A stretch of DNA of 64,000 nt from a virus. Lineage: Duplodnaviria > Heunggongvirae > Uroviricota > Caudoviricetes. The notes below the pieces were generated by a model. It was not told the DNA's origin. It made no database searches and saw nothing but the letters and a program-made list of their open reading frames with translations. The stretch spans positions 159,270 through 223,269 of IMG/VR virus record IMGVR_UViG_3300033074_000580; one strand, written 5' to 3'. Each line of letters begins with the position of its first letter. Within the stretch, counting starts at the first letter, position 1. The translations under genes were made by a program, and so were the position numbers. Below are positions 13,726 to 59,530 of this stretch, in pieces.

Positions 13726-13784
13726 TTAAACAATATGAAGACGGGGGAGTTATTCCCCTATCTTTGTATATTAAATAAACAGAT

Positions 13785-13976: not shown

Positions 13977-13989
13977 ATAACGATTAACT

Positions 13990-14127: not shown

Positions 14128-14257
14128 TCTCCCCGTGATCACCCGGTGATCAGGACTCCGAAGTTTACTGGATTAGGGGACATGTAAAAATATTTTGCCG
14201 GCAGATTTTTTATTGTGGATATTATTTACTATATTTTAGTATAAAATAATAAAACAC

Positions 14258-14440
14258 ATGAAAAAACAATCATCAACACGCCGTCAGACTGTAACCACTT
14301 ATGTTCCTGTATCTGACAACATCTACCACGACGGTTCATCATACCGTGTACGTGTTAGTATCAACGGTAAGAAGTACTCTAAGAACTTCTCTAACAAACG
14401 TAAAGCGGTTTCATTCCGTAACGAATTGTTAGGTCGATAG
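14258..14440 (+). CDS. AP2/integrase-arm-like DNA-binding domain protein (60 aa)
   Basis: 'YRVRVSINGKKYSKNFSNKRKAVSFRNEL' resembles AP2/integrase DNA-binding folds; codons of the cgt/ggt/aac/tac type. Confidence 0.45.
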   Translation: MKKQSSTRRQTVTTYVPVSDNIYHDGSSYRVRVSINGKKYSKNFSNKRKAVSFRNELLGR

Positions 14441-19950: not shown

Positions 19951-20285
19951 AGAAATTTTCTAATTTTATAGTACAACTTAAACAATCTTTTATATAACCA
20001 CTCAGGTTTCCTATAATAGAAACCCTTACTCTTTGTTTTTGGATAAGACCAATGATAACCAACCATTTGTTCAAATAGAAACTTTCTTAATCTGAATTTA
20101 ACTTCCTCCCAAAACGATAACATGTAGATATCACATGTTATTTTTTCATAATCACCTTCTATTTTAGTTTCAAACCAAAATAATGTGTTTCCCATTCTAC
20201 ACAAACCAGATAGATGAACATCGTAATGATTGGATATCCAAACAAAATCAATTTCATCATATGGTAATGTTGCTATTCGTTTCAT
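19947..20285 (-). CDS. hypothetical protein (112 aa)
   Basis: ORF track. Confidence 0.45.
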   Translation of the reverse strand: MKRIATLPYDEIDFVWISNHYDVHLSGLCRMGNTLFWFETKIEGDYEKITCDIYMLSFWEEVKFRLRKFLFEQMVGYHWSYPKTKSKGFYYRKPEWLYKRLFKLYYKIRKFL

Positions 20286-20872
20286 TTTAATAATTCATTT
20301 AAAACGTGTTTGGCAAATTTCTTATGTCCTGAAGATTTTAAATGAATACCATCATCAGAATCACTTCTGTCTACAGTATTATCCATAGGAATGATTCTAC
20401 ATCCAGTAATTCTTTCTTGAATTTTCTTTTGTAGTTTTATGTATCGATTTCTACAACGAGTGGTTGTTGCATCGTCATAAGTTGTTCTAACATTAACCTT
20501 CTCAGGGTTATAACCAACAATAACAATGACTTCCATCTCATATAGATTACCTAAGTCAACCATCGATTGAATGTTATTCAATGTTTCCGTTTCACTAGTC
20601 ATCGCAAATGAATCATTGATACCACCGTATATAATTAAAGTTGAATGAAATTCATTTTTCTTTAAGTAAGATTCCAATGTTGATAACATCCACTTAGTTC
20701 TTTTACCTCCTTTTGATATGTTATGAAACTTCATATCCATACCCTTAGCCACACTTGATTGCCATCCACCACTATAACAAGTTAAACTATCTCCCACAAA
20801 TAATATCCTTCTACCTGTCTCAGATTTAAAAGATACCATAGTTAAACATAAAAATAAAATTACTCCCCTCAT
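20282..20872 (-). CDS. SGNH/GDSL hydrolase
   Basis: 'ILFVGDSLT' block I with the catalytic Ser; signal-like N-terminus. Confidence 0.7.
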   Translation of the reverse strand: MRGVILFLCLTMVSFKSETGRRILFVGDSLTCYSGGWQSSVAKGMDMKFHNISKGGKRTKWMLSTLESYLKKNEFHSTLIIYGGINDSFAMTSETETLNNIQSMVDLGNLYEMEVIVIVGYNPEKVNVRTTYDDATTTRCRNRYIKLQKKIQERITGCRIIPMDNTVDRSDSDDGIHLKSSGHKKFAKHVLNELLK

Positions 20873-22802: not shown

Positions 22803-23381
22803 CTATATCAAAGTATCTCGTTTTCTTTGAATATAATTCATACCAATAGTACCATTTTGTAATCTTCGTTTACTATCTAATAAATCCAAATACTTTAAAT
22901 CACCCATGTTAAGAAACGATTTAACTTTTTCAACATCTTCTTTTTCTTCAAATAAGTTTTCGTATGTTGTTCTTAACGCATTGATATTCAACTCATCTAA
23001 TTTTTCTGATAATTTTCCAACCCAGTTTTCCATTCGATTGATTTCATCCTTATGTCTTTCAACCCAGTCGTTATTTAATTCATATGTTTTGTGATTTTTA
23101 TAATCACCAACTTTATTATCCGAATAAACCCAACTGATTGCAACATCTCTAAAATTCAATCGTTTATGAATTATCACCTTATCAAATTTAGATATGAAAT
23201 CATTATCAATTCTAAATAAAAACTCTTTAACCACAATGTTATCGTGGTCAATATAATCAAGAAGTTCTTCGTGATTCGGGGAAAACGGTTCGTGTAAATG
23301 AATATAGTTTAATTCACTTGAAATCCAAGTACTTAAAGAATATCCACCCGACCTTGGATATGTTATAATCAATATTCTCAT
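22803..23381 (-). CDS. sulfotransferase-family protein
   Basis: 'TYPRSGGYSLSTW' resembles the 5'-PSB PAPS-binding motif; 'FRDVAISWVY' resembles the 3'-PB motif. Confidence 0.55.
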   Translation of the reverse strand: MRILIITYPRSGGYSLSTWISSELNYIHLHEPFSPNHEELLDYIDHDNIVVKEFLFRIDNDFISKFDKVIIHKRLNFRDVAISWVYSDNKVGDYKNHKTYELNNDWVERHKDEINRMENWVGKLSEKLDELNINALRTTYENLFEEKEDVEKVKSFLNMGDLKYLDLLDSKRRLQNGTIGMNYIQRKRDTLI

Positions 23382-23664: not shown

Positions 23665-23913
23665 TTATAGCTTTTCTAACACTATTTTATTTAATTCACT
23701 ATCCCTCAGGGCTATGGTTTGACAAACCTCACCACTATTAGTTAATAGGGAAACTAAATAAACCCCGTTTTGACGTAATTTGATTTTAATTATTTCACCA
23801 CATATGAATCCCATTTCCATCAATCTTAATCGAATACAAGGTTTACATTTTAAACAATGTTCAGCTTCGGGAATATCGATAACTTTATATAATTCACCAA
23901 TTTCTAATTTCAT
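23665..23913 (-). CDS. FeoA-like (SH3-like) domain protein
   Basis: 'RLRLMEMGFICGEIIKIK...GEVCQTIALRDSELNKIVLE' matches the FeoA pattern. Confidence 0.5.
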   Translation of the reverse strand: MKLEIGELYKVIDIPEAEHCLKCKPCIRLRLMEMGFICGEIIKIKLRQNGVYLVSLLTNSGEVCQTIALRDSELNKIVLEKL

Positions 23914-24641
23914 TTATAATTTTTTAAATAATATTCTAAATCTTCTGGCGTCCCAAGTCCCCACATATCTTTTGATTCAATCATATAGTTGTATATTTGT
24001 AAACCATTACCGATTGCTTCGTTATAAACAGGACAAACATAAAATTCATTATTAACTCGGATGTTCTTATCAATCATTTGTTCTGCGGATTTAACAAAAT
24101 CCGAACCATGTTTCCAATAGTAAATTCCTGCAGTTGCCTTATTTGATATTGCTCTTTTTTCCGCAACCTCAGTTATTAGATTGGTGTTGCTGTTTACCCT
24201 TGCAAATGACCACTTCTCATCATATGCTTCGAAACACATTATTGCGCCATCATATTCTTTAACCGCACCCATGAAATCATTTGAGTCCCATATAATTAAC
24301 TGGTCTGAATTCATGATGATTAAAGGGTTATCATTATTGATTAGTTCTTTAGATGCCAACACACTACACGCAGCACCTTCAGTTAATCCATTAACTTCCA
24401 CAATTGAGAAGTTAGGAGTGAAAGATAAAATATCATCCAATGGATAATCGAGTCTATGTTCCTTTTGAACGATGTATATGAAATGAGCATCTATGTTCAT
24501 GGATTCAACAACCAATTTAACCATCGGTTTTCCATTAACATCAATCAATGGTTTTGGCAATTCGTATCCAACCTTTTGGAATCGACTACCCAATCCCGCC
24601 ATTGGGATTACAACATTTAATTTATTGTTTTTATATTTCAT
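23910..24641 (-). CDS. sugar-phosphate nucleotidyltransferase
   Basis: N-terminal 'VIPMAGLGSRF' NTP-transferase signature. Confidence 0.7.
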   Translation of the reverse strand: MKYKNNKLNVVIPMAGLGSRFQKVGYELPKPLIDVNGKPMVKLVVESMNIDAHFIYIVQKEHRLDYPLDDILSFTPNFSIVEVNGLTEGAACSVLASKELINNDNPLIIMNSDQLIIWDSNDFMGAVKEYDGAIMCFEAYDEKWSFARVNSNTNLITEVAEKRAISNKATAGIYYWKHGSDFVKSAEQMIDKNIRVNNEFYVCPVYNEAIGNGLQIYNYMIESKDMWGLGTPEDLEYYLKNYK

Positions 24642-31508: not shown

Positions 31509-32453
31509 CTAGTTAACTCCTTTAAATAATTGTGGGGTTTGACCGTAAACCGGTAACTTTCCGTCCCATTTTTCAATCCACAATTGTTGTAACAATAATG
31601 AATTCAAAGTAGATTGTTTCATTCTGTTTGCTTCAGACTCAGCCTTAGCGGTTGTTAACATCGCCTGAGCGTTACCTTCAGCGGTTGCCACTTTAATCTT
31701 AGCTTCAGCTTCAGCTTGTTTAACTTTATTCTCTGCCATCAAAGCAGCTTGAACCGCATTGTTCTTGGCGTTTATTGCGTTCTTAAATGATTCAGGATAT
31801 AATAGATTAGATGTAAATTGATTTACAACAAACCCTTCATGTAACAATTGACCTTCCAATAACTTACGAACTTCAATCTCAAATTGAGCTCGATTACTAA
31901 TCAATTCATCTGCGGTATATTTGTTTGTTGCTAATCTAAACGCGTCGAATACTGCGGTCTTTAAGAACCCTTCTTCAATCTGTTCTAAACTTCTACGATA
32001 CTTAGCAAAGATTTGTGGTACCTTTTCTCTTTGTACTGAGTAGTTGATGATTGGAGATACGTGGAACTCACTACCGTCTCTACTGTTTACGATGAATGAA
32101 TTGTCGCCAGTATATTCTTTGTGTTGAATAAATGTTGGGAATTCATAAATGTTGTGAGTGATTGGATTAAAGAATACCATACCAGTAACTTCAGTTACAT
32201 CACTTACACCTTTATTATCACCATATAAGTTTACCTTTACACCAACGTGTCCAGCATCAATTCTTTCACATGAAAAGAAAAGAAAAATAATTAGGAAAAA
32301 TCCCACCACACCTGTTACAATTGTTTTCATTGTTTTTTTAATTTTAATTGTTTGTTCGTTATTAAATTCTTCTTCCATTAGGTCCAATTCTTCCTCGGAC
32401 CTACGATTACCTCGATTATCCCATCGGTTATTGTATCTATCAAATTTCGCCAT
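31509..32453 (-). CDS. SPFH/band-7 (prohibitin-like) membrane protein
   Basis: N-terminal TM segment; prohibitin-like core and Ala/Glu-rich coiled-coil tail. Confidence 0.8.
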   Translation of the reverse strand: MAKFDRYNNRWDNRGNRRSEEELDLMEEEFNNEQTIKIKKTMKTIVTGVVGFFLIIFLFFSCERIDAGHVGVKVNLYGDNKGVSDVTEVTGMVFFNPITHNIYEFPTFIQHKEYTGDNSFIVNSRDGSEFHVSPIINYSVQREKVPQIFAKYRRSLEQIEEGFLKTAVFDAFRLATNKYTADELISNRAQFEIEVRKLLEGQLLHEGFVVNQFTSNLLYPESFKNAINAKNNAVQAALMAENKVKQAEAEAKIKVATAEGNAQAMLTTAKAESEANRMKQSTLNSLLLQQLWIEKWDGKLPVYGQTPQLFKGVN

Positions 32454-32797: not shown

Positions 32798-33283
32798 TTA
32801 TTTTGTTAAAATAGGTGATGTGGTTGTTAATGGTGTTGGTGTAAATGTAACAACTGTCACATCACAATTTCTTAAATTACTTTTTATTGCAGATTCAATC
32901 GCACCCCAATCACCACCACCAATACCCGCACCAATCTTTGGTAGTCCAATATGTTTACCCGCAAATATTCTATTCATACTTTTTAAACACGATTTAAGTG
33001 CATTTAGTCTGAAATCCGGTCCTGGTCTATATTGTGTATAGGAATTAACAACAAACAATCTATATTTGGTATTATATTCCCAATCAATTTTACCCAACTT
33101 TTCTTTCATTCCTTCGAACCTTTTACTTTCAAGAAAGAATCTATCACAACCAAACGCTCTAGCCATTTGTGGTGCTAATCCTCCAGCCATTGCATTGAAA
33201 CAATTACAACCGTGTGTTATAACATCGAATTGTTTATTCTTTGCCAATTCAATTAAATCCCCTTCAATTATGTTATATTCCAT
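32798..33283 (-). CDS. macro-domain protein (ADP-ribose binding/processing)
   Basis: 'DVITHGCNCFNAMAGGLAPQMARAFG' and 'LPKIGAGIGGGDW' motifs. Confidence 0.8.
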   Translation of the reverse strand: MEYNIIEGDLIELAKNKQFDVITHGCNCFNAMAGGLAPQMARAFGCDRFFLESKRFEGMKEKLGKIDWEYNTKYRLFVVNSYTQYRPGPDFRLNALKSCLKSMNRIFAGKHIGLPKIGAGIGGGDWGAIESAIKSNLRNCDVTVVTFTPTPLTTTSPILTK

Positions 33284-34702: not shown

Positions 34703-35356
34703 TTATCCAACAATTCCAACAATATCATCCATATGATGGTCATCAGTACCCAATTCAGAACCTATTTGATGTCTTTTGAGTGCTTTAATTACATCTTTTA
34801 AATCATATGGTGCAAATTCTAAACTACCATCCATACCAACATCCATACGACGACCATTACTAATCTTTTTATCGAAAGGTAAATGGCAATGTCCATGTAA
34901 ATGTATACGTCCTTTACGAAGTCCGTTCCAACTTGATATTGGGTAATGACACATCTCGATTGTTTCTCCTTGATATTCAAATTGGTCAAACCAACTCACA
35001 CTCATAAAAAGTTTTTTAACATCCCCTCTATTTCTATCAATGTGATGGTCATGATTACCCAGAATCAAATGTATGTTCTTACAAATCAATCTGTTATGGA
35101 ATTCTTCAATGTTTTCAAATCCACCAAAACTCCAATCACCTAAGTGAATTAGAATATCATCTTGTCCAACAACTTCGTTAATGTTATTAACAATTGCTGA
35201 ATTCATCTTTTCAATTGTCTCAAAAGGTCGTGTTTGTTTTTCAGGAATATCACCATTAGGTAATCTCCAATTAGTTACACCACGACATATATTTTTGTGG
35301 GCGTAATGAGTGTCAGATGTTATCCACACTCTTATATTATCATCTATCTTTATCAT
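34703..35356 (-). CDS. metallophosphoesterase (calcineurin-like)
   Basis: motifs 'SDTHYAH' (DxH), 'LGDWSFGG' (GD) and 'LGNHDHH' (GNHD). Confidence 0.75.
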   Translation of the reverse strand: MIKIDDNIRVWITSDTHYAHKNICRGVTNWRLPNGDIPEKQTRPFETIEKMNSAIVNNINEVVGQDDILIHLGDWSFGGFENIEEFHNRLICKNIHLILGNHDHHIDRNRGDVKKLFMSVSWFDQFEYQGETIEMCHYPISSWNGLRKGRIHLHGHCHLPFDKKISNGRRMDVGMDGSLEFAPYDLKDVIKALKRHQIGSELGTDDHHMDDIVGIVG

Positions 35357-37500
35357 ATCAATGTCTTTTTATTTGGTAATGGGGTAATTTCTTCGACTGG
35401 TTTATTTGACCAATCTCCCGAACCTTCCCACTCATATTCAAAACTAAAATCAACATTACTATTCATGTGAAATAGTTGTATTTCTAGTTGTTTAAATTCG
35501 GGGTCAGGTCTACCTTCTTCACCCCATCTTGGTTTTGCAATTTTTCTTGCTCTTGTCGATGCATTTAATTTAGTATATGAATAGTCTTCTAATCTAAATG
35601 GAATTCTTTCAACAGGGTCATATGCCGGTTGTGTAAATTTATGTTTACATTTATATGTCCACTTACCTTCATCATCTATCTTAAAATGATGGTCAGCCCA
35701 ATATGGTCCAGCATTTCTAGCACCAAATTCAATCATATCCAACTCCTCATCATATTTTAAATGAATCTCAAATCCACCCCTTGTTCTCCAAAATAATCTA
35801 AACAGAACAAACATTTCGTTAACTAAACTATCTGCGAAATTACTAATGTTAGGTTTAATGATATTGTAATCAAAACCAGTTTCATAATCAATCTCAATTA
35901 GTTTATCGGGATTGTCAAATGTTAGTGTGTAATGAAACTCAGGTAAGTTAGGTCTCCACGGTACACTAATCGGTTCTTCACTTTTCATATTTTGTAAGAA
36001 TATCGCAAATGATTTTACTCTATTCAAAACATGTATCTTAGATAATTTATAATCATCTCTCATCCAACTACCTAAGTAAAAGAATGGTGATATATTGAAA
36101 CGTTCAATGTTTTGTCCGGCAACCGTATTAACACCTAATCCAAAACCAAAACCAGCCGCAATTGTTAATATACTTGTGTTTCTATTTCTCCAAATGAAAC
36201 TCATCGTGTGTCCAAAGTCTTCATAGTCTTCAGTTGGGAAACCTACAATCCAGTTCGTCAATCCACCAACACCAACAACTTTACCCGATGCCAAGTTATC
36301 TTCCATTTCTTGAATGGTAACTCCTTTTAACATATCGTTAAGTACTTTCTGACTACCAGATTCACAACCATAACTCAACATCTCACAACCACCCGCCTTC
36401 AAGTCTTTATAATATTCTAAATCCATTCGACCATCATGTCTAGCATAACCCGTCCAATGTATCTTCATTCCCTTTGCAACAACACCTTTACAAAATGCTC
36501 TTAATTCATTTAAGTTACCATTAACTAAACTATCAATGAACCAAATAACATCGGTACCTTTGTTATAATATAACCATTCGATTTCCGTTATCGCATCAAC
36601 CGCCTGTCTTTGTCTATACTTCCAAAAATGTGTTTCTTCACAGAAAGAACATTTAGCAATACAACCTCTACTGAATTCTGTGTTAACTCCGTTTGGATAA
36701 ACATACTCATTAAAATCAAATGTTGAATAATCAGGTAATGGTAGATTATTTAAATTTAATCTTTGGTTTTCAGGTTGTGCCAAATATTGCATCGTTGGAT
36801 GAACCACACCCTTTTCTATTTCATTTAATATTTGTAACAAAATCATTTCACCTTCACCATTAACCGCATAATCAATTACACCTTGTGGATAATCATTAGG
36901 GTCTAAGAATTGATATTGTCTCAACGCAACGTGTGGTCCCCCTAATAATATTTTTATTGATGGTTTTAGTTTCTTTAACTCGGTCATCATCCACTTAACC
37001 GGTTGTTCATTACAATAATATAATGTAAACCCAACAACATCAGGGTCAAATGCCATAATATCTTTTAGGTACTCTTTAAATAATGGTTCCGTATGTTGGT
37101 GAATTTCTTCGTAGTAATGTGGTGGATTCCATTTCCATTCACGAGCACCATCAAAGGGGTCAAAGTCAATTTTATTTTCCAATAACCATTTACGAGATTC
37201 ATTATGTACTTTAACATTAAAATCGAAACACTTAGTATTATAACCGGCCTTTCTTGAAACGGCAGATAAACGAGCAATACTAAATGGCGGAAAGTTAGGT
37301 GACCACTCGGGCATTAACACAAGTGCTAATTTTGTATTTTTGGTACTCGGTATAATCTCAACGTCTGTGACGTTTTCTTGAACCTTAGCTTTTGCGAAAG
37401 GTGCAATGGCTCTCATCATGTCGAGGTGTTTATCCTCAGCATTGAAATCCATTGGTCTTGGTTTAGATTCTTCCTTTCTGTAATTGTAAAGTTCTGCCAT
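35353..37500 (-). CDS. B12-binding-domain radical SAM enzyme (715 aa)
   Basis: 'CIAKCSFC' CxxxCxxC motif after an N-terminal cobalamin-binding-like Rossmann region; long C-terminal extension. Confidence 0.8.
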   Translation of the reverse strand: MAELYNYRKEESKPRPMDFNAEDKHLDMMRAIAPFAKAKVQENVTDVEIIPSTKNTKLALVLMPEWSPNFPPFSIARLSAVSRKAGYNTKCFDFNVKVHNESRKWLLENKIDFDPFDGAREWKWNPPHYYEEIHQHTEPLFKEYLKDIMAFDPDVVGFTLYYCNEQPVKWMMTELKKLKPSIKILLGGPHVALRQYQFLDPNDYPQGVIDYAVNGEGEMILLQILNEIEKGVVHPTMQYLAQPENQRLNLNNLPLPDYSTFDFNEYVYPNGVNTEFSRGCIAKCSFCEETHFWKYRQRQAVDAITEIEWLYYNKGTDVIWFIDSLVNGNLNELRAFCKGVVAKGMKIHWTGYARHDGRMDLEYYKDLKAGGCEMLSYGCESGSQKVLNDMLKGVTIQEMEDNLASGKVVGVGGLTNWIVGFPTEDYEDFGHTMSFIWRNRNTSILTIAAGFGFGLGVNTVAGQNIERFNISPFFYLGSWMRDDYKLSKIHVLNRVKSFAIFLQNMKSEEPISVPWRPNLPEFHYTLTFDNPDKLIEIDYETGFDYNIIKPNISNFADSLVNEMFVLFRLFWRTRGGFEIHLKYDEELDMIEFGARNAGPYWADHHFKIDDEGKWTYKCKHKFTQPAYDPVERIPFRLEDYSYTKLNASTRARKIAKPRWGEEGRPDPEFKQLEIQLFHMNSNVDFSFEYEWEGSGDWSNKPVEEITPLPNKKTLI

Positions 37501-37533
37501 TAAAATATTATTTTTATAATTAGTTTTTTTATA

Positions 37534-38037
37534 TTAACAAAAATCTGTTGATGAGCTCACTCGAAGCCCATCGATTATTAAATCATCGTACTTTTCATTA
37601 TCCAACCAGAATGAACCGTGTCCTTTGGTTCTTTCTTTTCTACGATATTCTTCGTTTACAACCAAACCATTCGGTTCACCCCATTCCAACGCCATTGTAA
37701 TGAATTCTTCAACATCTTGTTCTTCACCATATTCATCAACAACTCTACCTGAACGAATGAATTCAAATAAACTTTCTTTGTCTGAATAGTATTTGTTATT
37801 GTGAAAATTCCAACAGAACTTCCATCCACTACTTCTTTTCCCCAAATGAATACTGGTATCCATTAAGAACATTTCCCACGGTGAAAACCATTCCCAATTT
37901 TTAGTAGGGCTAATGGTTCTAAAACCACCTTCAATGTTTCCTGGTGTTAAATCTAGACCATTTACATGACCTAATAATTCCATTTTACGAGTAACCATTT
38001 CCTCGTGTGTCGGTATTCTGTAATAGTTTGTTCCCAT
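37534..38037 (-). CDS. hypothetical protein (167 aa), likely co-transcribed with the radical SAM gene
   Basis: ORF track. Confidence 0.5.
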   Translation of the reverse strand: MGTNYYRIPTHEEMVTRKMELLGHVNGLDLTPGNIEGGFRTISPTKNWEWFSPWEMFLMDTSIHLGKRSSGWKFCWNFHNNKYYSDKESLFEFIRSGRVVDEYGEEQDVEEFITMALEWGEPNGLVVNEEYRRKERTKGHGSFWLDNEKYDDLIIDGLRVSSSTDFC

Positions 38038-38094: not shown

Positions 38095-38126
38095 ATAAAA
38101 AAAATCCCCACATTTCTGTGGGGATT
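38095..38126 (-). terminator. minus-strand terminator
   Basis: aaaaaaaATCCCCACAtttcTGTGGGGAT. Confidence 0.7.
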
Positions 38127-42508: not shown

Positions 42509-42752
42509 AACTCCCTAATGTCTTAAAATATTTACTTTTACCTTTTCGTGCCAATTTAATTTCATCGTGAAGAGTTTTACCATCTTTTCTCAATTCCCTT
42601 TCAATTTCATTAAGTCTTTGCCACTTTCTTATCTCTCTTTGTTCTTCTTCTTTACCACCAAAAACATAATAATGGAGGAGTACACCTAATATACCAGGAG
42701 GTTCGGGTAAACAAAAACCTGCCAATATTATCAACAATATGAATGTCATCAT
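42489..42752 (-). CDS. membrane protein (87 aa)
   Basis: N-terminal TM segment. Confidence 0.4.
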   Translation of the reverse strand: MMTFILLIILAGFCLPEPPGILGVLLHYYVFGGKEEEQREIRKWQRLNEIERELRKDGKTLHDEIKLARKGKSKYFKTLGSYEETDL

Positions 42753-43342
42753 AATAAAAATTTTAAAATCTTATCTTTAATACCGCTTTGTTTAATCCCT
42801 TCAGAACTTAATGGTGTTTCAACAAAATTATCTAAACCCCATTCATGTTCATATGAAATGGAATAATCCAAACCAGTTTTACCCATTCTCAAATCATCAA
42901 TAGCAACCCAATGTGTTATTTCAGGATGGTCAACCAAGTATTGTTTAATCTCAATACTTCTTGTTTGTTCCAATTCCCATTCACGAGACCAAACAAATCC
43001 TGCAGGATATGCTCCGATGTACCAAGTACATTGACCCAAGTTTGGTGTAAAGTCTATTGGTTTCTTTTTGAGACCTTGTGATTCATAATACTCACCCATC
43101 TCCTCAACAGTTGCCCATCTTTTCCAATCAGATGAGACAACAATTTCAGCATTAGTTTCTTCCAAGATTTCATTCAAAACTTTGATTGCCTTTTTATTGA
43201 AGTTATCAAAACGGGACATCACGGGTAACGATGCTACCGATTGTGATAATTTCCTACCTGCTTCTCTTTGTTTCTTAAACCGACCACCCCATTCGGTTGA
43301 TAAACATATCACACCATCGTGGTCTAAAAATATTACTTTCAT
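42749..43342 (-). CDS. HAD-superfamily phosphatase
   Basis: 'VIFLDHDGVI' motif I. Confidence 0.65.
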   Translation of the reverse strand: MKVIFLDHDGVICLSTEWGGRFKKQREAGRKLSQSVASLPVMSRFDNFNKKAIKVLNEILEETNAEIVVSSDWKRWATVEEMGEYYESQGLKKKPIDFTPNLGQCTWYIGAYPAGFVWSREWELEQTRSIEIKQYLVDHPEITHWVAIDDLRMGKTGLDYSISYEHEWGLDNFVETPLSSEGIKQSGIKDKILKFLL

Positions 43343-44365: not shown

Positions 44366-45076
44366 TTACTCATTTTCTTCAGTCATTCGACATCTGTTAC
44401 ATTGTTTGTCACATCTATCTCCACCATCATCTTCAACAGAACAATAAAACGGTTTGTCATTATTCATACAACTTGATAATATTTCTAAACATAACTGTTC
44501 AGGAATTTTACTTCTTTCATATGCGTTACTTCTGCCTTGTGTTCCCGTTTTAGAACCTCTTGGTGCTGCAACATGACAAGGGTCACCATTCTTACACATT
44601 GGACGAGGAACCCACATATTGCTATTGGTCCATATGTCAGTTGGTTTCATTCGTTCATCACCATATTGACAATATGTTACTGTGTGTCGTTTAAAGTCTG
44701 CCATGAATGGCATTTTACGAAGTACTCCTCTTGGATTTTCCATGAACCAATATCTTGGATTAAAATGTTCTATTATTTCTATTGTTTTCTTAACTAACTC
44801 GATACCTAATCTTGCGCCATCTGTTTTAGGAATGTAAGCACCTTTACCTCCAGTCCAATGGTGTCCTAATGATGCAACACTAAAACTTGTACATGGGGGT
44901 GATGCCCAAATAACATCTGGTTTAAACGGTACTTTCTTTACATCAAAATCCAATATACTAATTGGATAATGAATCCCTTCAAATTCAACCAAGTCAGATG
45001 AAAAAACTTCCATCCCTAAACTTTCGGAAATTTTACCAACCGAGCGACTGCCCGCAAACAATTCCAATACCTTCAT
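44366..45076 (-). CDS. DNA (cytosine-5) methyltransferase
   Basis: motif I 'LELFAGSRSVG', motif IV 'SPPCTSFS' and 'ENPRG'. Confidence 0.8.
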   Translation of the reverse strand: MKVLELFAGSRSVGKISESLGMEVFSSDLVEFEGIHYPISILDFDVKKVPFKPDVIWASPPCTSFSVASLGHHWTGGKGAYIPKTDGARLGIELVKKTIEIIEHFNPRYWFMENPRGVLRKMPFMADFKRHTVTYCQYGDERMKPTDIWTNSNMWVPRPMCKNGDPCHVAAPRGSKTGTQGRSNAYERSKIPEQLCLEILSSCMNNDKPFYCSVEDDGGDRCDKQCNRCRMTEENE

Positions 45077-45413: not shown

Positions 45414-46136
45414 TTATACTAACTTAGTTTTATTTAATGGAGTATCGATGAATTTCCATTCATAAAACTTCTCACGGATTGTTTCAATTGATGGTGATGT
45501 TATTTCCCTTAATGTTGGTCTCATTATGATTATATCAAAATCCACAATCTTTGTTTTTAATCCCAATTTTGTGGATAACTTATATAATTGTTTATGTGGA
45601 TTAACTTCCGAAGAAACAACATCTAATTCACTTATGAATTTACACATCTCATTGTGGTTCCCAAAATAAAATGTATCTGTTAAAAGAAATGGCTTTGGTG
45701 AAACGTAACCACTAGCATTTATTAACTTATTACAATAGAGTGTGTCTATTTCGTTTAACTCACGAAATATTGAGTGGTCGTTTAATTCGAAATGAAGGTC
45801 AGGTCTTAATAACATTATAGAATCATAATGTTTATTACTTTCTTTCATCAACCTAAACGATTCCTTCCAATGATAAAACATCTTCTGTGTGTTCCCATTT
45901 AGAAAACTAACATCGTCTTGGTTTTTAATTGAAACTGTTGCGTTTGGTAATTGATTGAGAATCCTATCTAATGTGACATCTTCTATGATGTTAATGTTTA
46001 AATCGTTCCTTATCTGAATAGATTTATCCCAAGTTGAGACATAGACATCACAATCGTATTCATTTAAAAATTTCCACGATTTAATTGCAATGTCCAGTTC
46101 TCTATACTCACCAAAAACTAAAACGGCAATTCTCAT
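45414..46136 (-). CDS. hypothetical protein, paralog family A (240 aa)
   Basis: '[14 protein letters not shown]...YVSTWDKS' parallels 24641..25492. Confidence 0.55.
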
Positions 46137-46465
46137 AATGAAAAAGATTCACCACATCCACAAGTTCTACTTGCATTTGGATTACCCCAACTAAATCCCT
46201 TACCATTTAACCCGTCAGAATAATCTAGTTCGGTACCAAAAAGATATAATATTGATTTTCTATCAATAACCACTTTTAATCCTCCGTCCAATTGAACCAC
46301 TTCATCTGTGATATCTTCAACATCATCAAAATCCATCTTATATGAGAGTCCACTACATCCTCCGCCAATCACACTAACGCGAAGATGGTGGGTGTCGGGT
46401 GTTAAACCTTCACTCACCATCAATTCTAATAGGTGATGTAACGCTTTATCTGTTACAGTAATCAT
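46133..46465 (-). CDS. iron-sulfur cluster assembly protein, IscA/ErpA (HesB) family
   Basis: '[14 protein letters not shown]' and C-terminal 'CGCGESF' cysteines. Confidence 0.85.
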
Positions 46466-47910: not shown

Positions 47911-48888
47911 TTATTTTTTCTGAGATTTCAAAATTTGTTTATTATTTAAGAAACTATAGATGTGACCAGTCACTGGAATACACCATCCGTTACCAATCAT
48001 CTTGATTCTTTTGGTTGCGGTCACACCTTCAACGTTAGTATATCCCGCTTTAAGTCCTTGAAGTACTTCCGCTTCCATAATGGTTAATTGTTTAATCTCA
48101 CCAGATTCTGTCTCATAAAATCCTGTGCCAAATGATTCACCCTTTCTATTTGTTGAACCAAGTTGTGTAACTAAACAATTTGATTTACCATCAATTCGAG
48201 TTGTTTTCGGATAAAAATATTTTCCATCTTTACCTTTACGACCTCTAAAACCAACACCATTCTTTGCACCATTAACAATATTACCAATTGTTATTCCTCT
48301 ATCTTCAGGTACTTGTACTCCTTCAATATCTGTCCAAAATAAACGAATACGACTTTGTCCCCAAACACGAGCTGCGTCAAATACAATTGGTTTAACACCT
48401 AACGCGTCACTAATAACATTCTCCCACTTCTTTGTCATCTTAACGTTTTCTAACAAGAAATTAAGAACTGGTAAACCTCTTTCAATTTGTAGGTCGCGAA
48501 TACCACGATATAACCTAACGAATTCCCAAAACAAATATGATTGACCTTCGAATTCAAATCCTTCAGATACCAATTGTTCATAATGTTCTAAAGTTAAAAT
48601 GTCAATCTCAGTTGTGGTTGAGAAACCTTTTTTCTTACCCATAAATGATAGACATTGACATGGTGAACCTCCATCAATAACGGTTACATCTAAAAAATCT
48701 TCGGGTTTAAGATTACGAACATCACCAACTTGAATAGTATCGGGAAAATTTGCGTTCAATACTTTGATTGAAGACTCTTCCACTTCACTACTGTAATGTT
48801 TAACAACATTTAATCCAGCATACTCAGCAGATAATCTTGACCCGCCATAACCAGCAAATAGAGATAAAAATACGTGTTCTTTTTTCAT
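47911..48888 (-). CDS. DNA (cytosine-5) methyltransferase
   Basis: 'LSLFAGYGGS', 'GGSPCQCLSF' and 'LLENVK'. Confidence 0.85.
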   Translation of the reverse strand: MKKEHVFLSLFAGYGGSRLSAEYAGLNVVKHYSSEVEESSIKVLNANFPDTIQVGDVRNLKPEDFLDVTVIDGGSPCQCLSFMGKKKGFSTTTEIDILTLEHYEQLVSEGFEFEGQSYLFWEFVRLYRGIRDLQIERGLPVLNFLLENVKMTKKWENVISDALGVKPIVFDAARVWGQSRIRLFWTDIEGVQVPEDRGITIGNIVNGAKNGVGFRGRKGKDGKYFYPKTTRIDGKSNCLVTQLGSTNRKGESFGTGFYETESGEIKQLTIMEAEVLQGLKAGYTNVEGVTATKRIKMIGNGWCIPVTGHIYSFLNNKQILKSQKK

Positions 48889-48974: not shown

Positions 48975-49006
48975 AAATAAAAAACCCATTGAAAATCAAT
49001 GGGTTA
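48975..49006 (-). terminator. minus-strand terminator
   Basis: A-run, then AACCCATTGAaaaTCAATGGGTT. Confidence 0.65.
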
Positions 49007-50396
49007 TGAAATCGTATTTTTCTTTTTTCCAATCAAAGGTTAGATGTTTTTCCATCCTATCGGTTAGAATATCAATTGCCCTTTGGAATAAATCCTCGTC
49101 GACTGCGGTATTCGCTTTACCATAACTCTGTATTAGTTTACCCTTTTTATATTGTAGGTTAATCTTTTTTCTTTTATGTGACATAGATACGAAAACATAA
49201 ACGGCTCCGTGTAAGAATTGTTTGGCCATGCAGTTCTTCATATTATAACCCTCAATTCTATAATCCTCTTCCGAAACCAATACAGTTGGTTTATAAAGTT
49301 TATCATCGACAACAATCTCTTCTTCAATAACATCAATAAACTCCTTTGGTAAATCATACTTTATTTTATATCCTCTGGTGAAATGTAATTTTACTCCTGA
49401 CCAAGTCTCCATATGATTTTCAAAATCACTATCCGTTTTCGCTTTATATCTTAAATCAATTCCTTTTGATTCTAATAATTCACGGATTGAGAATAATTTA
49501 TTTAGTGAATAAACAAGTGAATCACTTTTTAATGTTTCGGTTTCCCAATTTTCTATTGTCTTTACCATACACATTTTTTCCGATTCATTTTTCAATTCAT
49601 GTATTCTTTTATTGGGAGGTAGTTCATAACAATGTTTTTCCCAATTAAATTGTTTCAAGTAGTCAATATGATTACTCCCAAATAATTTACAGATGTAATT
49701 TAAAGATTGTATGTGTATTGGTTTATTTGTATTCTTGTTTAACTCTCCAATCAAATATTTTGATTTAATTCCGTATGAATCTAATATTGCAGGAAGAAAT
49801 TTAAAATCATTTTTCTCTAACCATTTTTTCTTTGGGTAATTGTGTTGGATGTCATAGTATATACCATCGTGAGATTTAATTCCCTTCACATCTAAATGAT
49901 AATCCACCATTAAATCATATAATCTATTTATCTTGGCGTCGTTTAGATAATTCTTTGTTCTATAATATTCTAACGTAAAATTGGGTTGTAGAATTTCAAC
50001 CAGTAGTTTCATAATTGAATCTTGTGCTCTGTGGAATTTAACACCCCAATACCCGATTCTTTTTTCACCTCGAACAAAACCATTTTCACACAAATCGAAA
50101 ATCAAACTGAAATCATTTCTTTTGGAAATTGTTTTATTTTTAAATGATTTTTCAGTTGTTAAATTATCATTCTTTATGGAGTATGTGGTATTGATATCTC
50201 CGTTGTTGATGTTTAAACATAGTTGATGTTGGAAGAATACTTTCTTTCTATCTCCATATCTACTATATTCAAAATCGTACTTAGCGTCAAATATCAAAAC
50301 GGAATCATCTTGTAATAATTGTAATTCACATAAAGATTTTGTTAAACCTTTATCGGTCTTTTCTTGTGTGTGTCTAAATAATAAATCCATATACAA
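48996..50396 (-). CDS. hypothetical protein, paralog family B (466 aa)
   Basis: shares central and C-terminal blocks (including an 'EG-x2-M-x-[NH]-C' motif) with 50427..52286. Confidence 0.6.
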   Translation of the reverse strand: MYMDLLFRHTQEKTDKGLTKSLCELQLLQDDSVLIFDAKYDFEYSRYGDRKKVFFQHQLCLNINNGDINTTYSIKNDNLTTEKSFKNKTISKRNDFSLIFDLCENGFVRGEKRIGYWGVKFHRAQDSIMKLLVEILQPNFTLEYYRTKNYLNDAKINRLYDLMVDYHLDVKGIKSHDGIYYDIQHNYPKKKWLEKNDFKFLPAILDSYGIKSKYLIGELNKNTNKPIHIQSLNYICKLFGSNHIDYLKQFNWEKHCYELPPNKRIHELKNESEKMCMVKTIENWETETLKSDSLVYSLNKLFSIRELLESKGIDLRYKAKTDSDFENHMETWSGVKLHFTRGYKIKYDLPKEFIDVIEEEIVVDDKLYKPTVLVSEEDYRIEGYNMKNCMAKQFLHGAVYVFVSMSHKRKKINLQYKKGKLIQSYGKANTAVDEDLFQRAIDILTDRMEKHLTFDWKKEKYDFITH

Positions 50397-50426
50397 AAGA
50401 TATATGGATTTATTGATATTGTGTAG

Positions 50427-52286
50427 TTAAAAAGGTAATCTAAATTCGGCTTGTCTGGGTCCCCTATCGTCTAAATTTATTTCCATCCCATTTATTTTTA
50501 CCGGTACTTTCTTTTTCTCCTTCCAATTTAATGTACCCCATCTTGCGTGTAATCTAATTTTATCATCTAACAACAATAACCCATCATTAAATGTTTCAGG
50601 TGGAACTTTATTACAGAAATGTCTTTTTTGTATTGGTTTACCATTTTGAATTTCATATTCCACAGTAACCCTATCTGAACCATCTTCATTTCTTAAAGAT
50701 ACAATCATTGACTTATCTTTATCTGCATATGATGCAACACAATGGTGCATGAAATCACCTTCTTCAACATATTCTTCTTCTCTTTTCAAAATGACAGGAT
50801 ACAATGTATGTAAAGACTTATCGTCATATAAACATTGAATAGGTTCTTCAATATCTTTTAATGTTTTCTCATCGTATTGATATTCAATTACCCATCCCTT
50901 TCTAATCCCGCTTAATATTTTTGAAAGTTCTCTATGTTCTTCATTGAACTCTTTCATGCTTTTTGCTTTCATGAAGATATCGGGAATGTATTTTCTTATT
51001 TTGTCAATCATATTAAAATGGTCATCATACATTCTTATAGATTGTCCCGATAATATATTTCTATTAGTACTATCATCAGACAATACTCTGATTAAATTTT
51101 CCTTTTCAATATCAGATAATGGTGTATATCTTTGTTGTGAAGAAAAATGTAATAATGTTTCTTTAGTTATACCACCATATGAATATGGTGTATCTGTTCT
51201 TGATGACCTACTTAAAACATCATCGTTTAGATTACCCAAATACTTTGAGTAGTTATCTCCCAATCTATTGCATAACCAATGAAGACCTTCCAAATCTATG
51301 TTAGGGTATTTGTGTACAATTTTGATTGTTGATTTTGATTTTAAACCGATAGTGTCTAATACCGATGCAACTAATTTTCTATCGTTCTTTTTAAGATACT
51401 TTTCGGTAGGGTAAAATTTAGACAAAAGATATTCAATGTCACCATCAGGAATTCTTATTTGTTTCTTTTCAACAAAGAATGACATTAAATCGGTTGTAAA
51501 TTTATTTGGGTTTGTTGTATAGTTTACAAATAATTTTGGTTTGTTACCAAATAATAACTCATGTATTTTTGAGGTGAATTCAACATCATTAAATGAATTT
51601 ATCATTTCATTATATAACCTAGATTTCTTTTTGAAATTCTTAGCAACATTAAAAAATGAATAATTGGATATTGCGGTGTTATTCAACATCATAAAAGAGT
51701 TTGTTCTAAATTTTGAATTGGAGTTTCGTCCATTTTTACTCTTTTCTAATATTGTGAAATTACCGGTCTTCGTGTTTATAGTTACCGAAAACACGTGGTA
51801 ACTCTTTTTAAAATAAATTGAATTGAATTTTCTATACTTTGAGCCGTGATAGATTTTAATGGTAACCTTATCCCCAAATTTTCTAACTGACCTTTCGGTT
51901 GTTGTTATTGTAACCTCCGAAAATGGATTACCATAGTGTCTTTTTATTTGTCTGTCATTTATAGTATCAAATTCGTAAATAGCAAAATTTAGGTTGAATC
52001 TTTCAACCACGTCACTATTCTCATAAAAGAAATGCGTTTTCTTTTTACCGTTTTTAGTTGGGAAATTGACTACCCTTCCTTTTACTGGTTCCGGTTCCCT
52101 AAGAACAGAGGACAACAATTTTTCATTAGTTGTATACGAATCATCAAAAAATTCCTCCTCGTCTTCAAACCCATCCAAGTTGACATGCATTGAATTAAGT
52201 GAGGTTTTCTTTTCAGTTAATTTAGAATAATCTCTAAATAACGTGATAGTTGCATGACTAAATTTTTCGGTATATATTTCCTCCAT
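50427..52286 (-). CDS. hypothetical protein, paralog family B (619 aa)
   Basis: paralogous to 48996..50396. Confidence 0.6.
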   Translation of the reverse strand: MEEIYTEKFSHATITLFRDYSKLTEKKTSLNSMHVNLDGFEDEEEFFDDSYTTNEKLLSSVLREPEPVKGRVVNFPTKNGKKKTHFFYENSDVVERFNLNFAIYEFDTINDRQIKRHYGNPFSEVTITTTERSVRKFGDKVTIKIYHGSKYRKFNSIYFKKSYHVFSVTINTKTGNFTILEKSKNGRNSNSKFRTNSFMMLNNTAISNYSFFNVAKNFKKKSRLYNEMINSFNDVEFTSKIHELLFGNKPKLFVNYTTNPNKFTTDLMSFFVEKKQIRIPDGDIEYLLSKFYPTEKYLKKNDRKLVASVLDTIGLKSKSTIKIVHKYPNIDLEGLHWLCNRLGDNYSKYLGNLNDDVLSRSSRTDTPYSYGGITKETLLHFSSQQRYTPLSDIEKENLIRVLSDDSTNRNILSGQSIRMYDDHFNMIDKIRKYIPDIFMKAKSMKEFNEEHRELSKILSGIRKGWVIEYQYDEKTLKDIEEPIQCLYDDKSLHTLYPVILKREEEYVEEGDFMHHCVASYADKDKSMIVSLRNEDGSDRVTVEYEIQNGKPIQKRHFCNKVPPETFNDGLLLLDDKIRLHARWGTLNWKEKKKVPVKINGMEINLDDRGPRQAEFRLPF

Positions 52287-52966: not shown

Positions 52967-54013
52967 CTAATTTGATAAAGGTGCTTTAATTGTTGGGTGT
53001 GATTCATAATTTACTAATGTAAAATCCTCTAATTTATACATCGGTAAGGAATCACCTTCCAATCTTTTAACATTTTCTTCTATTTTCAATAATGGTAGAT
53101 TCTTAAAAGGTTCTCTACTAATTTGTTCTTTTGCCTGTTCAATATGGTTTGAGTATAAATGAACGTCTCCCAAATTACCAATCAACTCATCTGGAACCAT
53201 ACCCACCTCTTTGGATATAATTTCCAATAATAAACCATATGATGCGATATTAAATGGTAAACCTAAAAATGTATCCACACTTCTTTGATTCCACATTAAA
53301 GAGATTGCTCGTTTTGGGACCGGATATAATTTATCAATTTCTTCATGGTCTACTTTGTGGAAATCAAACGGCTCAAATAAATTACCATAAGTTTTTGATG
53401 CTAAATCTAATCTTTCTTCAATATTTAACTCTCTAGTATAAACTTGAAATCCATAATGACAAGGTGGTAAAACCATTTGGTCTAACTCACCTACATTCCA
53501 AGCCGATACCATTAACCTTCTACTATCAGGATTTGTTTTAAGTTCGTTAATTAAGTTTTGGATTTGGTCTGTTCCCCAAGTGTGATTTGGTTTAGTCCAA
53601 TCTCTCCATTGCTTACCATAGATTGGTCCTAATTCACCCCATTTTTCTGCAAACTCATCATCGGTTTTGATTTTATCAACAAATAGTTCTTTGGTTAGTT
53701 GACTTTCATTACCAAACCATTCGGTCATTTTCTTTTGGTAATTCTTATAAGCATCCCCATCCCAAATGTGACAACCATTATCAATCAGATATTTTATATT
53801 TGTGTCTCCACGTAAAAACCATAACAATTCAATTACCATTGTTTTCCACGCCATCTTTTTAGTTGTAAGTAATGGGAAACCTTGGGACATCTTATGACGA
53901 ATTTGACGACCGAATACTGATATAGTACCAGTTCCCGTTCTATCGGTTTTAACAATCCCATTATCGATGATATCTTGTAATAGTTCTTGATATTTGATGT
54001 CTAATGTATTCAT
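52967..54013 (-). CDS. thyA: thymidylate synthase (ThyA family) carrying a ~40-aa insertion
   Basis: 'DRTGTGTISVFG', 'PPCH', 'FLGLPFNIASY' and 'GDVHLYSNH' conserved blocks. Confidence 0.9.
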   Translation of the reverse strand: MNTLDIKYQELLQDIIDNGIVKTDRTGTGTISVFGRQIRHKMSQGFPLLTTKKMAWKTMVIELLWFLRGDTNIKYLIDNGCHIWDGDAYKNYQKKMTEWFGNESQLTKELFVDKIKTDDEFAEKWGELGPIYGKQWRDWTKPNHTWGTDQIQNLINELKTNPDSRRLMVSAWNVGELDQMVLPPCHYGFQVYTRELNIEERLDLASKTYGNLFEPFDFHKVDHEEIDKLYPVPKRAISLMWNQRSVDTFLGLPFNIASYGLLLEIISKEVGMVPDELIGNLGDVHLYSNHIEQAKEQISREPFKNLPLLKIEENVKRLEGDSLPMYKLEDFTLVNYESHPTIKAPLSN

Positions 54014-59526: not shown

Positions 59527-59530
59527 TTTA

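Follow-up and report, generated by a model that had tools for sequence, protein, structure and literature searches.

The stretch of viral DNA analysed here (64,000 nucleotides, hereafter the window) encodes, at positions 35353–37500 of its minus strand, a 715-residue radical SAM enzyme (rSAM) of class-B, or cobalamin-type, architecture, which belongs to an uncharacterised and apparently virus-restricted branch of these enzymes and is carried as a solo cassette between two backbone genes. We give an even chance to the reading that best accounts for these features jointly, namely an enzyme that methylates a sugar, with the substrate inferred from relatives and the chemistry from established class-B enzymes. 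To our knowledge, bacterial natural-product or cofactor pathways are the source of almost all characterised class-B enzymes. The carrier of the rSAM gene is an uncultured Immutovirus-like phage, probably with a Bacteroidota host; phage origin is supported by PHROG matches, an endolysin-like protein, an HNH endonuclease and syntenic IMG/VR contigs, and the best protein matches in the window are to Flavobacterium phage immuto. The rSAM locus comprises the following features.

34703–35356, minus strand: calcineurin-like metallophosphoesterase (Pfam Metallophos, 9e-9; phrog_547, 2e-43), downstream boundary of the insertion
35353–37500 (stop included), minus strand: B12-binding radical SAM enzyme, 715 aa, the ORF of the accessory cassette
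35356–36168, minus strand: family-specific C-terminal domain, residues 445–715, presumed to recognise the substrate
36193–36678, minus strand: radical SAM barrel, residues 275–436 (PF04055, 43.3 bits; GA 29.5)
36640–36663, minus strand: [4Fe-4S] cluster motif C280-x3-C284-x2-C287 (CIAKCSFC), from the translation
36838–37077, minus strand: cobalamin-binding Rossmann core, residues 142–221 (Pfam B12-binding, 34.5 bits; GA 32.1)
37501–37533, minus strand: AT-rich spacer of 33 nt that precedes the rSAM start codon and forms the 5' portion of the insert
37534–38037, minus strand: 167-aa backbone gene, upstream boundary of the insertion
38103–38126, minus strand: terminator-like hairpin (10-bp stem plus T run; consensus scan) between a 468-aa gene and the 167-aa gene

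The ORFs described by the initial annotation are all present on the minus strand as listed, and its central observation, a 715-aa B12-binding radical SAM protein with the motif CIAKCSFC, holds, with both Pfam domains above GA. The CxxxCxxC motif lies within the barrel, as in the radical SAM superfamily, and C280, C284 and C287 are invariant across 44 homologues. N-terminal to the barrel is a Rossmann-type cobalamin-binding domain, as in class B, whose fold is wider than the Pfam match (roughly residues 55–245) and which is full-length and conserved throughout the family, many members of which nevertheless score below the Pfam B12-binding threshold. The barrel superposes on those of TsrM, AprD4 and TokK, and the loop 277–290 has low pLDDT in the predicted structure, as expected for a metal-free model. 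Past the rSAM domain the chain continues for 279 residues, close to the 300 or so first proposed. By domain architecture the product is thus a phage-borne class-B radical SAM enzyme, which would presumably use cobalamin; AprD4 illustrates that a class-B-like fold alone is no proof of cobalamin use.

Homologues occur on 186 IMG/VR contigs, and 120 clusters share 51–94% identity over 95–100% of the query. The family alignment contains more than 100 invariant columns, over 40 of them within the C-terminal domain (about residues 430–720), so that conservation spans the full length of the protein, and the window protein keeps all the invariant residues. The C-terminal domain, about 270 residues, occurs solely in this architecture, and no relative was found by sequence or fold, including in the PDB. 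The class-B enzymes of solved structure, TsrM, TokK, CysS, MgmA/Mmp10 and OxsB, are only 14–17% identical to the window protein and have no counterpart to its C-terminal 270 residues; the window family, moreover, is viral. A PDB sequence search matched the generic core alone (CysS, 1.8e-6). The top Foldseek match is OxsB, with MgmA and CysS also among the structural matches and AprD4, which acts on an aminoglycoside sugar, among the closest. Neither the region nor the protein matched any of 50,697 deposited phage records (megablast, tblastn), and 185,579 species genomes gave just three full-length matches, all on MAG contigs of 29–80 kb; two of these are labelled Halobacteriovorax, with four to five N-twitch rSAM genes adjoining the rSAM. 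The nearest chromosomal homologue, from Halobacteriovorax, is 31% identical over the core only, and its neighbours are TsaD, KsgA and GPx, an uninformative context. No published description of the family was found in literature searches.

HMM classification, which the initial annotation had suggested as a check, placed the enzyme in no known or housekeeping family: neither the full protein nor the C-terminal domain was assigned to a Pfam or NCBIfam family, and no NCBIfam cutoff was reached. The best NCBIfam scores, about 91–96 bits against cutoffs of 481–750, were for PhpK-type P-methyltransferases (TIGR04479, 95.9 against 600), ApyD (NF050148, 94.3 against 750) and BchE (TIGR02026, 91.3 against an equivalog cutoff of 481.35); RiPP C-methyltransferases followed (TIGR03975, 77.2 against 281.85), and the PhpK, ApyD and RiPP matches cover the core region only. 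Several homologues bear JGI names that, together with the place of BchE among these matches, would make the enzyme an anaerobic Mg-protoporphyrin cyclase of the BchE type or a protein of the YgiQ type, and its gene a tetrapyrrole or housekeeping AMG. The likelihood of this is negligible, as the BchE score lies far under its cutoff, tetrapyrrole genes are found near the rSAM in none of 85 loci, and the C-terminal domain is unlike anything known; both identities were rejected.

The initial annotation had treated the rSAM, the phosphoesterase and the 167-aa protein as one module. The overlap on which this was based exists (ATGA at 35353–35356, where the phosphoesterase ATG overlaps the rSAM TGA), the 167-aa gene precedes the rSAM, no terminator separates the three genes in a consensus scan, and all three lie within 3.5 kb in four close lineages. 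With OxsB as top structural match, and ThyA and DNA methyltransferases encoded in the window, they could form a co-evolved OxsB/OxsA-like operon for nucleotide or DNA hypermodification, its cluster fed by IscA and FeoA. Comparison with relatives, however, largely refutes this model, which we now regard as very improbable. Syntenic loci without the rSAM are L097–L099, L105, L110, L139 and L142; the 167-aa gene adjoins the phosphoesterase in L097–L099, L110, L139 and L142, and runs directly into it in L099, L139 and L142. In L099 the 33-nt spacer is also missing, and the stop codon of the 167-aa gene overlaps the start of the phosphoesterase gene. The start-codon context of the phosphoesterase, including the ATG/stop overlap, is conserved with and without the rSAM, so the overlap pre-exists the supposed pairing. 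Phosphoesterase homologues occur in 1,327 sequenced phages (best match Flavobacterium phage immuto, 45%), all of which lack the rSAM, and conversely both neighbours are missing from 57 of the 63 dereplicated rSAM lineages. An OxsB/OxsA-type pair, in which pairing would be conserved and obligate, was rejected on these grounds. OxsA, the phosphohydrolase partner with which OxsB acts on deoxyadenosine phosphates, is an HD-domain protein and not of the calcineurin type, which also counts against the operon. The 167-aa protein itself matched nothing in Pfam, NCBIfam or PHROG; it has 1,997 homologues, at least 73% identical in the top 120 clusters.

The rSAM is instead a segment of 33-nt spacer plus ORF inserted between two backbone genes, and not part of an operon with its neighbours. 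Nucleotide alignments of the junctions support insertion between the 167-aa gene and the phosphoesterase, and close relatives are polymorphic for the presence of the gene. Its position is shifted in L092, where the 167-aa gene lies downstream of it, and in L094, while L104 retains a 51-codon stump with flanks that are 97% identical. The adjacency of the neighbours in rSAM-less relatives, the retention of IscA there (see below) and this stump identify the rSAM as a single-gene accessory cassette that is gained and lost. In these respects it resembles phage morons, which likewise consist of a single ORF and a short spacer between conserved backbone genes, with polymorphism of presence and position in close relatives and a deletion remnant. 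A classical moron is equipped with a promoter and terminator of its own, whereas none is evident for the rSAM cassette, which appears to ride on the backbone transcription unit. Promoter-like sites were at chance level (29, with 27.3 expected) in a scan whose consensus does not cover Bacteroidota-type promoters, and no Shine-Dalgarno sequence was found in the spacer. The sole convincing hairpin, upstream of the 167-aa gene, weakly suggests that the 167-aa, rSAM and phosphoesterase genes are co-transcribed, such sites being at chance level in the region.

The genes that were invoked from elsewhere in the window are all present, with Pfam support for IscA and FeoA.

20–25 kb: NTP-transferase, sulfotransferase and GDSL genes
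23665–23913: FeoA (PF04023, 1.4e-5; 25.5 bits, GA 23)
44366–45076 and 47911–48888: two C5-methyltransferases
46133–46465: IscA-type protein (PF01521, 6e-16)
52967–54013: ThyA (6e-97)
59510–62145: two GT4 glycosyltransferases

The proposed service of IscA and FeoA to the rSAM is not borne out. IscA, put forward as a dedicated Fe-S supply, keeps the same position in relatives of the Immutovirus-like backbone that lack the rSAM, and FeoA, put forward as an iron link, is coupled to a nucleotidyltransferase inside the sugar block of the window and was never found near the rSAM in other loci of the family. The general idea of phage Fe-S carriers serving phage Fe-S enzymes is already published: T4-like marine environmental viral genomes encode an A-type carrier (IscA/ErpA type) with up to 12 rSAM genes, and viral Fe-S assembly was proposed to serve viral Fe-S proteins (Nishimura et al., 2017, PMC5332604). 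The window phage resembles those viruses in being uncultured and aquatic and in encoding an IscA-type protein and an rSAM, but its IscA belongs to the backbone and is independent of the rSAM. No T4 structural hallmarks were found among PHROG matches in the sampled flanks of the gene islands described below.

Gene neighbourhoods across the family point to a sugar. In 55 of the 63 lineages the rSAM has one or more recognisable nucleotide-sugar or carbamoyl enzymes no more than 10 kb away, the island enzymes including an NDP-sugar dehydrogenase, Fcl-like and 4,6-dehydratase-like SDRs, RmlC, DegT-like proteins and a carbamoyltransferase. The islands also hold N-twitch rSAMs (up to five), two B12-rSAM paralogues, SGNH-type proteins, a giant repeat protein (33 of the 63 lineages) and many paralogues of a family of about 400 residues (A2), the commonest neighbour of the rSAM. 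A2 gave no match in a Pfam scan of 10 members or a PDB profile search, and its 1,137 homologues from a search of 5.8 billion proteins are every one unannotated; the description of the islands as glycan islands hence rests on their other members. An H-R...E...E-K motif in A2 gives us the impression of GT10-type glycosyltransferases. A further family, C6, looks amidinotransferase-like (C-terminal GGxFHCVTLD), for which Pfam and NCBIfam gave no confirmation. Such islands, dense in rSAM and sugar genes, are missing from every deposited phage genome. By content only, they resemble the hypervariable host recognition cluster of pelagimyophages, which combines glycosyltransferases, UDP-glucose dehydrogenase and rfaE-type genes with radical SAM cassettes and was read as serving host O-chain modification or the avoidance of co-infection (Zaragoza-Solas et al., 2020, PMC7029224). 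However, the window rSAM is missing from all deposited phages, HTVC008M included, and the window phage is Immutovirus-like and lacks an island: within 10 kb of its rSAM there is no sugar enzyme, and an SGNH-like protein is the only member of the island families in the 64 kb. The window protein itself falls in a long-paralogue clade, nested among island-embedded members.

The sugar and carbamoyl context in 55 of 63 lineages makes the tailoring of a sugar or glycan by radical chemistry, with C-methylation the probable reaction, the best-supported function as judged by gene context; the initial annotation's choice of nucleic-acid or glycan hypermodification is thus favoured in its glycan part, while its private Fe-S supply falls with the persistence of IscA in rSAM-less relatives. 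GenK/GenD1, Fom3 and MoeK5 are sugar-directed class-B methylases. Their clusters and that of AprD4, the apramycin radical SAM 1,2-diol dehydratase, contain aminotransferases, dehydrogenases and carbamoyltransferases and resemble the islands of most family members, and AprD4 combines class-B-type architecture with a carbohydrate (aminoglycoside) substrate of the kind proposed here. The likeness is one of architecture and context; these are bacterial natural-product enzymes and AprD4 works without cobalamin, whereas the window copy is a solo phage gene.

Modelled on established class-B chemistry (TokK, Fom3, GenK and Mmp10 type), a [4Fe-4S] cluster on C280, C284 and C287 would cleave SAM reductively to a 5'-deoxyadenosyl radical, which would take a hydrogen from an unactivated carbon of a substrate held by the C-terminal domain. 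The substrate radical would then receive a methyl group from methylcobalamin on the Rossmann domain, and the cobalamin would be re-methylated by a second SAM. Judged from the gene neighbourhoods of the family in other phages, the substrate may be a nucleotide-sugar or glycan residue, and the product a glycan of the host envelope or of the virion that is modified under phage direction.

A sugar might also undergo other radical chemistry, cobalamin-independent or non-methylating, such as an AprD4-like deoxygenation by 1,2-diol dehydration or an OxsB-like rearrangement; among class-B-like enzymes, OxsB and BchE do not methylate and AprD4 dispenses with cobalamin. Sequence cannot discriminate methylating from non-methylating radical chemistry. 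The many family members without a significant Pfam B12-binding match, and the bare margin of the window protein (34.5 against 32.1 bits), speak for this reading, but the Rossmann domain is full-length and conserved family-wide and most characterised class-B members are methylases, and we think it unlikely, if worth bearing in mind.

The tailored sugar could instead sit on phage DNA, on a glycosylated hydroxymethyl- or hydroxy-pyrimidine, the islands then being DNA-hypermodification islands. DNA glycosylation is known to draw on phage NDP-sugar pathways, so that phage nucleotide-sugar genes can serve this end too (bioRxiv 10.1101/2025.06.16.659550), and the backbone encodes an unusual ThyA homologue with an insertion of about 80 residues alongside several DNA methyltransferases. 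The ThyA and methyltransferase genes, however, belong to the backbone and occur in relatives regardless of whether these carry the rSAM, and the giant repeat protein, SGNH-type proteins, carbamoyltransferase and A2 paralogues look, if weakly, more like polysaccharide assembly. We consider DNA an improbable destination. A protein or peptide target appears equally improbable, whether by RiPP-type or Mmp10/MgmA-type side-chain C-methylation, for example of a virion protein or of the giant repeat protein that is frequent in the islands. RiPP enzymes (ApyD, rSAM_ocin_1) and the MCR glutamine methylase are near the top of the NCBIfam matches, and the structural matches include MgmA and CysS, but the NCBIfam scores lie far under the family cutoffs and resemble those of unrelated class-B members, no precursor-peptide gene was recognised, no giant protein lies near the solo cassette in the window, and the recognisable neighbours are sugar enzymes. 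Weighing against the sugar reading, a cassette able to act by itself must find its substrate in phages that lack the island, and a nucleotide, nucleic acid, lipid or protein would fit this as well as a sugar.

Sugar tailoring, the reading we prefer, also has a more far-reaching form, which we put forward tentatively and hold to be somewhat doubtful: a virus-specific glycan-tailoring family with a new substrate-recognition fold, which introduces a C-methyl group or other radical change into an unprecedented glycan built by the islands, and whose solo copy re-decorates a glycan of the host or virion. If so, the solo enzyme could contribute to superinfection exclusion or to escape from receptor recognition.

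Some alkylations catalysed by class-B radical SAM enzymes rank among the hardest in biology, and the present family is sizeable, seemingly confined to uncultured aquatic phages and endowed with an orphan C-terminal domain. Its analysis corrects a plausible operon inference and the automatic names BchE and YgiQ, and the natural presence/absence variants of the cassette offer a ready-made comparison for testing its function. If the sugar-tailoring proposal is true, these phages make chemically unusual glycans, with consequences for host range, superinfection exclusion and virion recognition.

The enzyme and its two immediate neighbours lie on one strand, each where the initial annotation had placed it:

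35353-37500 (-), B12-binding radical SAM enzyme (rSAM), 715 aa, ORF with Pfam matches
34703-35356 (-), metallophosphoesterase, 217 aa, Pfam Metallophos
37534-38037 (-), ORF of 167 aa

The 167-aa protein has no Pfam match. In rSAM, residues 142-221 form a B12-binding domain and residues 275-436 a Radical_SAM domain (Pfam), and all three cysteines of the CIAKCSFC motif (C280-x3-C284-x2-C287) are invariant among 44 homologues, confirming the proposed 715-aa B12-binding radical SAM protein with a CxxxCxxC motif. rSAM reaches no NCBIfam family (~77-96 bits versus curated cutoffs of 282-750); its matches there (PhpK, ApyD, BchE, a ladderane-lipid rSAM and RiPP methylases) cover the B12 and radical SAM core only. 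Automatic JGI annotation names homologues such as P0002, P0020, P0028 and P0067 either as a BchE-type cyclase ('anaerobic magnesium-protoporphyrin IX monomethyl ester cyclase') or as 'radical SAM superfamily enzyme YgiQ'. Neither name is supported, no NCBIfam cutoff being reached, and both mislead: the BchE model scores 91 bits where 481 are required.

An AlphaFold model built on the 44 homologues is confident (pLDDT 86, pTM 0.84). Its Foldseek matches, OxsB, TsrM, CysS, AprD4, TokK, MgmA and MiaB, are all class-B radical SAM enzymes and are confined to the first ~400 residues. The C-terminal domain (residues 445-715), whose classification the initial annotation had called for, served by itself as the query against 1.84 billion representative proteins and gave just 104 matches; in the full-length ones (600-860 aa) it always occupies ~430-720, behind a B12-rSAM core. 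The domain is an 'orphan' by sequence and by fold, and rSAM, which carries this novel domain, represents a viral branch of the class-B radical SAM enzymes.

More than 120 protein clusters match rSAM over its full length (51-94% identity), and the protein is encoded on 186 IMG/VR contigs; megablast and tblastn found it in 0 of 50,697 deposited phage records. Full-length copies number only three among 185,579 species genomes, all on MAG contigs of 29-80 kb, two of them labelled Halobacteriovorax and with 4-5 N-twitch rSAM genes beside rSAM. The closest chromosomal relative, from Halobacteriovorax, aligns over the core alone at 31% identity, lacks the C-terminal domain and sits amid housekeeping genes. 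Given the viral contigs, the few MAG copies and this core-only relative, the family looks virus-restricted.

De novo clustering of ORFs from 85 rSAM loci placed rSAM inside a large island in most phages. Neighbours were counted as lineages with the gene within 10 kb of rSAM, among 63 lineages dereplicated at 90% identity:

Unannotated ~400-aa family, 2-6 paralogues: 57/63
N-terminal-twitch rSAMs (NF033640, 355 bits), up to five paralogues: 46/63
Giant repeat protein, up to 2,390 aa: 33/63
Carbamoyltransferase: 31/63
Second B12-rSAM paralogue: 28/63
Fcl-like SDR: 26/63
NDP-sugar dehydrogenase: 25/63
DegT-like protein: 19/63
4,6-dehydratase-like SDR: 9/63
RmlC: 5/63

An RfaE-like enzyme and several SGNH-type proteins also occur, and 55 of the 63 lineages show one or more recognisable enzymes of nucleotide-sugar or carbamoyl type within that distance. 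We found no annotation for the ~400-aa family, the commonest neighbour, which has 1,137 homologues with invariant H, R, E, E and K residues. The island is conserved, with one or two B12-rSAM paralogues in each; its carriers are uncultured related phages (comparison loci L005-L085, e.g. L009 1-22130, L010, L033, L078 and L082). Its signature genes were absent from the 50,697 deposited phage genomes, save for N-twitch matches at 22-23% in six jumbo-phage records. In gene content the islands resemble a hypervariable region described in pelagimyophages as the 'host recognition cluster', where rSAM cassettes occur alongside glycosyltransferases, UDP-glucose dehydrogenase and rfaE (PMC7029224).

Island families are absent from the window except for one SGNH-like protein. 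A neighbour-joining tree divides the rSAM family into short (~640 aa) and long (~700-780 aa) paralogue clades, the window rSAM falling in the long clade within a small 'solo' sub-clade (window, L020, L001, L012 and L014). Since this sub-clade is nested among island-embedded members, the solo state is derived.

The window belongs to an uncultured Immutovirus-like phage, probably of a Bacteroidota host, as judged from the best matches of its phosphoesterase (45%; the gene stands alone there) and ThyA (58.5%), both to Flavobacterium phage immuto, together with a GC content of 32% and the absence of a Shine-Dalgarno sequence before rSAM. AT-rich spacers precede rSAM (37501-37533) and gene starts generally, and these three sequence features fit a Bacteroidota-type translation-initiation regime. 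Strand switches lie near 14-15 kb and 59 kb.

The initial annotation had joined rSAM, a partner phosphoesterase and the 167-aa protein in one module, and the rSAM stop and phosphoesterase ATG do overlap as ATGA. When every window ORF was searched by tblastn against the 85 rSAM-carrying loci, rSAM was found in 85/85, and the phosphoesterase, the 167-aa protein and the upstream 468-aa protein in one each, the syntenic relative L020, which shares the window's order (468-aa, 167-aa, rSAM, phosphoesterase). The order is 473-aa, rSAM, 167-aa, 116-aa, phosphoesterase in L092 and Dam, rSAM, 133-aa, phosphoesterase in L094; L095 and L001 (window's clade) have rSAM with neither the 167-aa gene nor the phosphoesterase. 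Three contigs with the 167-aa gene (L097, L098 and L099) have the same backbone without rSAM (HAD_SAK_2, PG-binding or M23 protein, 167-aa, phosphoesterase, SPFH); the 167-aa stop and the phosphoesterase start overlap each other in L099. Aligned with L099 at the nucleotide level, the window carries one additional segment, made up of a 33-nt AT-rich spacer and the rSAM ORF and nothing more, inserted between '...TGTTAA' and 'ATGATAAAGATAGAT...'. The overlap in L099 and this junction indicate that the 'translational coupling', although real as an overlap, is a backbone property older than the insertion. All 1,327 sequenced phages with a member of the phosphoesterase family lack rSAM, and the 167-aa family is very abundant and highly conserved (1,997 matches; best 120 clusters at least 73% identical). 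Comparative genomics thus refutes the phosphoesterase as partner, and the three-gene operon is very improbable.

In L104 only rSAM codons 1-51 are left, with a 5' end 97% nucleotide-identical to L092, and at 13700-14400 this stump is fused to sequence that comes after rSAM in L092; by alignment, it is a recent clean deletion. Across these loci, a single phage lineage has thus acquired, relocated and lost rSAM, a one-gene cassette inserted in what appears to be a transcription unit of the backbone. Backbone genes near the cassette include a macro-domain/phosphatase-like protein (phrog_335; 32798-33283, -), a HAD_SAK_2 domain protein ('Swiss-army-knife' RNA-repair type; 42749-43342, -) and an SPFH/Band-7 protein (31509-32453, -). 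Downstream of the phosphoesterase, close backbone relatives encode an RmlC-like dTDP-sugar isomerase and a small ferredoxin, with rSAM present (L092 9212-9751, 11014-11328) or absent (L098 7766-8305, 8764-9078); the window has neither at the corresponding position.

A dedicated Fe-S and iron supply for rSAM had also been proposed, from IscA and FeoA; these two and ThyA lie elsewhere in the window:

46133-46465 (-), IscA-type Fe-S carrier, PF01521 (6e-16), backbone gene
23665-24641 (-), FeoA-like 82-aa ORF (1.4e-5, slightly over gathering score) and nucleotidyltransferase gene, 4-nt overlap at the nucleotidyltransferase end
52967-54013 (-), ThyA homologue, 348 aa (6e-97), ~80-aa insertion relative to the Pfam model

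These genes are real, as are two C5-methyltransferase homologues and the glycan genes (two GT4 glycosyltransferases, the nucleotidyltransferase, a sulfotransferase and GDSL/SGNH proteins); an N6/N4 methyltransferase is also present, and ThyA further matches 0.6-Mb 'uncultured phage' records. Nishimura et al. (2017; PMC5332604) reported that A-type carriers and numerous rSAM genes occur together in viruses, and IscA lies within 10 kb of rSAM in 7/63 lineages. Relatives of the window IscA occur on 126 IMG/VR contigs (57-99% identity), with rSAM within 10 kb in 0 of 80 examined loci, and L105, L110, L139 and L142/143 retain the whole backbone with IscA and without rSAM (ThyA, PcfJ-like, IscA, C5-MTase, HAD, PG-binding protein, 468-aa, 167-aa, phosphoesterase). 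These loci make IscA a gene of the backbone and not an rSAM companion, which removes it as a dedicated supply. Deposited phages very seldom carry IscA: it is in 11 records, of which only LR756504 and LR756511, two 'uncultured phage' records of 0.6 Mb, look clearly viral. The two adjacent PcfJ-like proteins (48996-52286, -; 466 and 619 aa) are distant paralogues kept across backbone relatives. Dedicated iron supply fails likewise: tblastn found no FeoA homologue in the 85 rSAM loci, and the FeoA-like ORF overlaps the nucleotidyltransferase gene in a sugar-related block with a sulfotransferase (22803-23381) and a GDSL protein (20282-20872), where a FeoA/SH3-like domain has no obvious link to iron.

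The comparisons establish the class-B architecture, the orphan C-terminal domain and, for most family members, sugar-rich neighbourhoods. Sugar tailoring is our best explanation of what rSAM does, at about even odds. By established class-B chemistry, its [4Fe-4S] cluster would cleave SAM, a hydrogen would be abstracted from an unactivated substrate carbon, and methylcobalamin would donate a methyl group. By guilt by association, the substrate may be a nucleotide-sugar or glycan residue, and the phage may use rSAM to remodel glycans of the host envelope or virion. As the window rSAM acts without an island, its substrate would have to exist already in the infected cell. The sugar reading is weakened by the most frequent neighbour of rSAM, the ~400-aa family, being unannotated. 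Related folds, moreover, include the non-methylating OxsB and the cobalamin-free AprD4. Phage nucleotide-sugar pathways can also feed DNA glycosylation (10.1101/2025.06.16.659550).

The initial observation is thus confirmed and its interpretation supported in part: a class-B phage rSAM stands, shorn of its partner phosphoesterase and its own Fe-S and iron supply. Both the family and its relatives' rSAM-rich islands merit experimental study, and because phage variants with and without the cassette occur naturally, the question of function can be tested.
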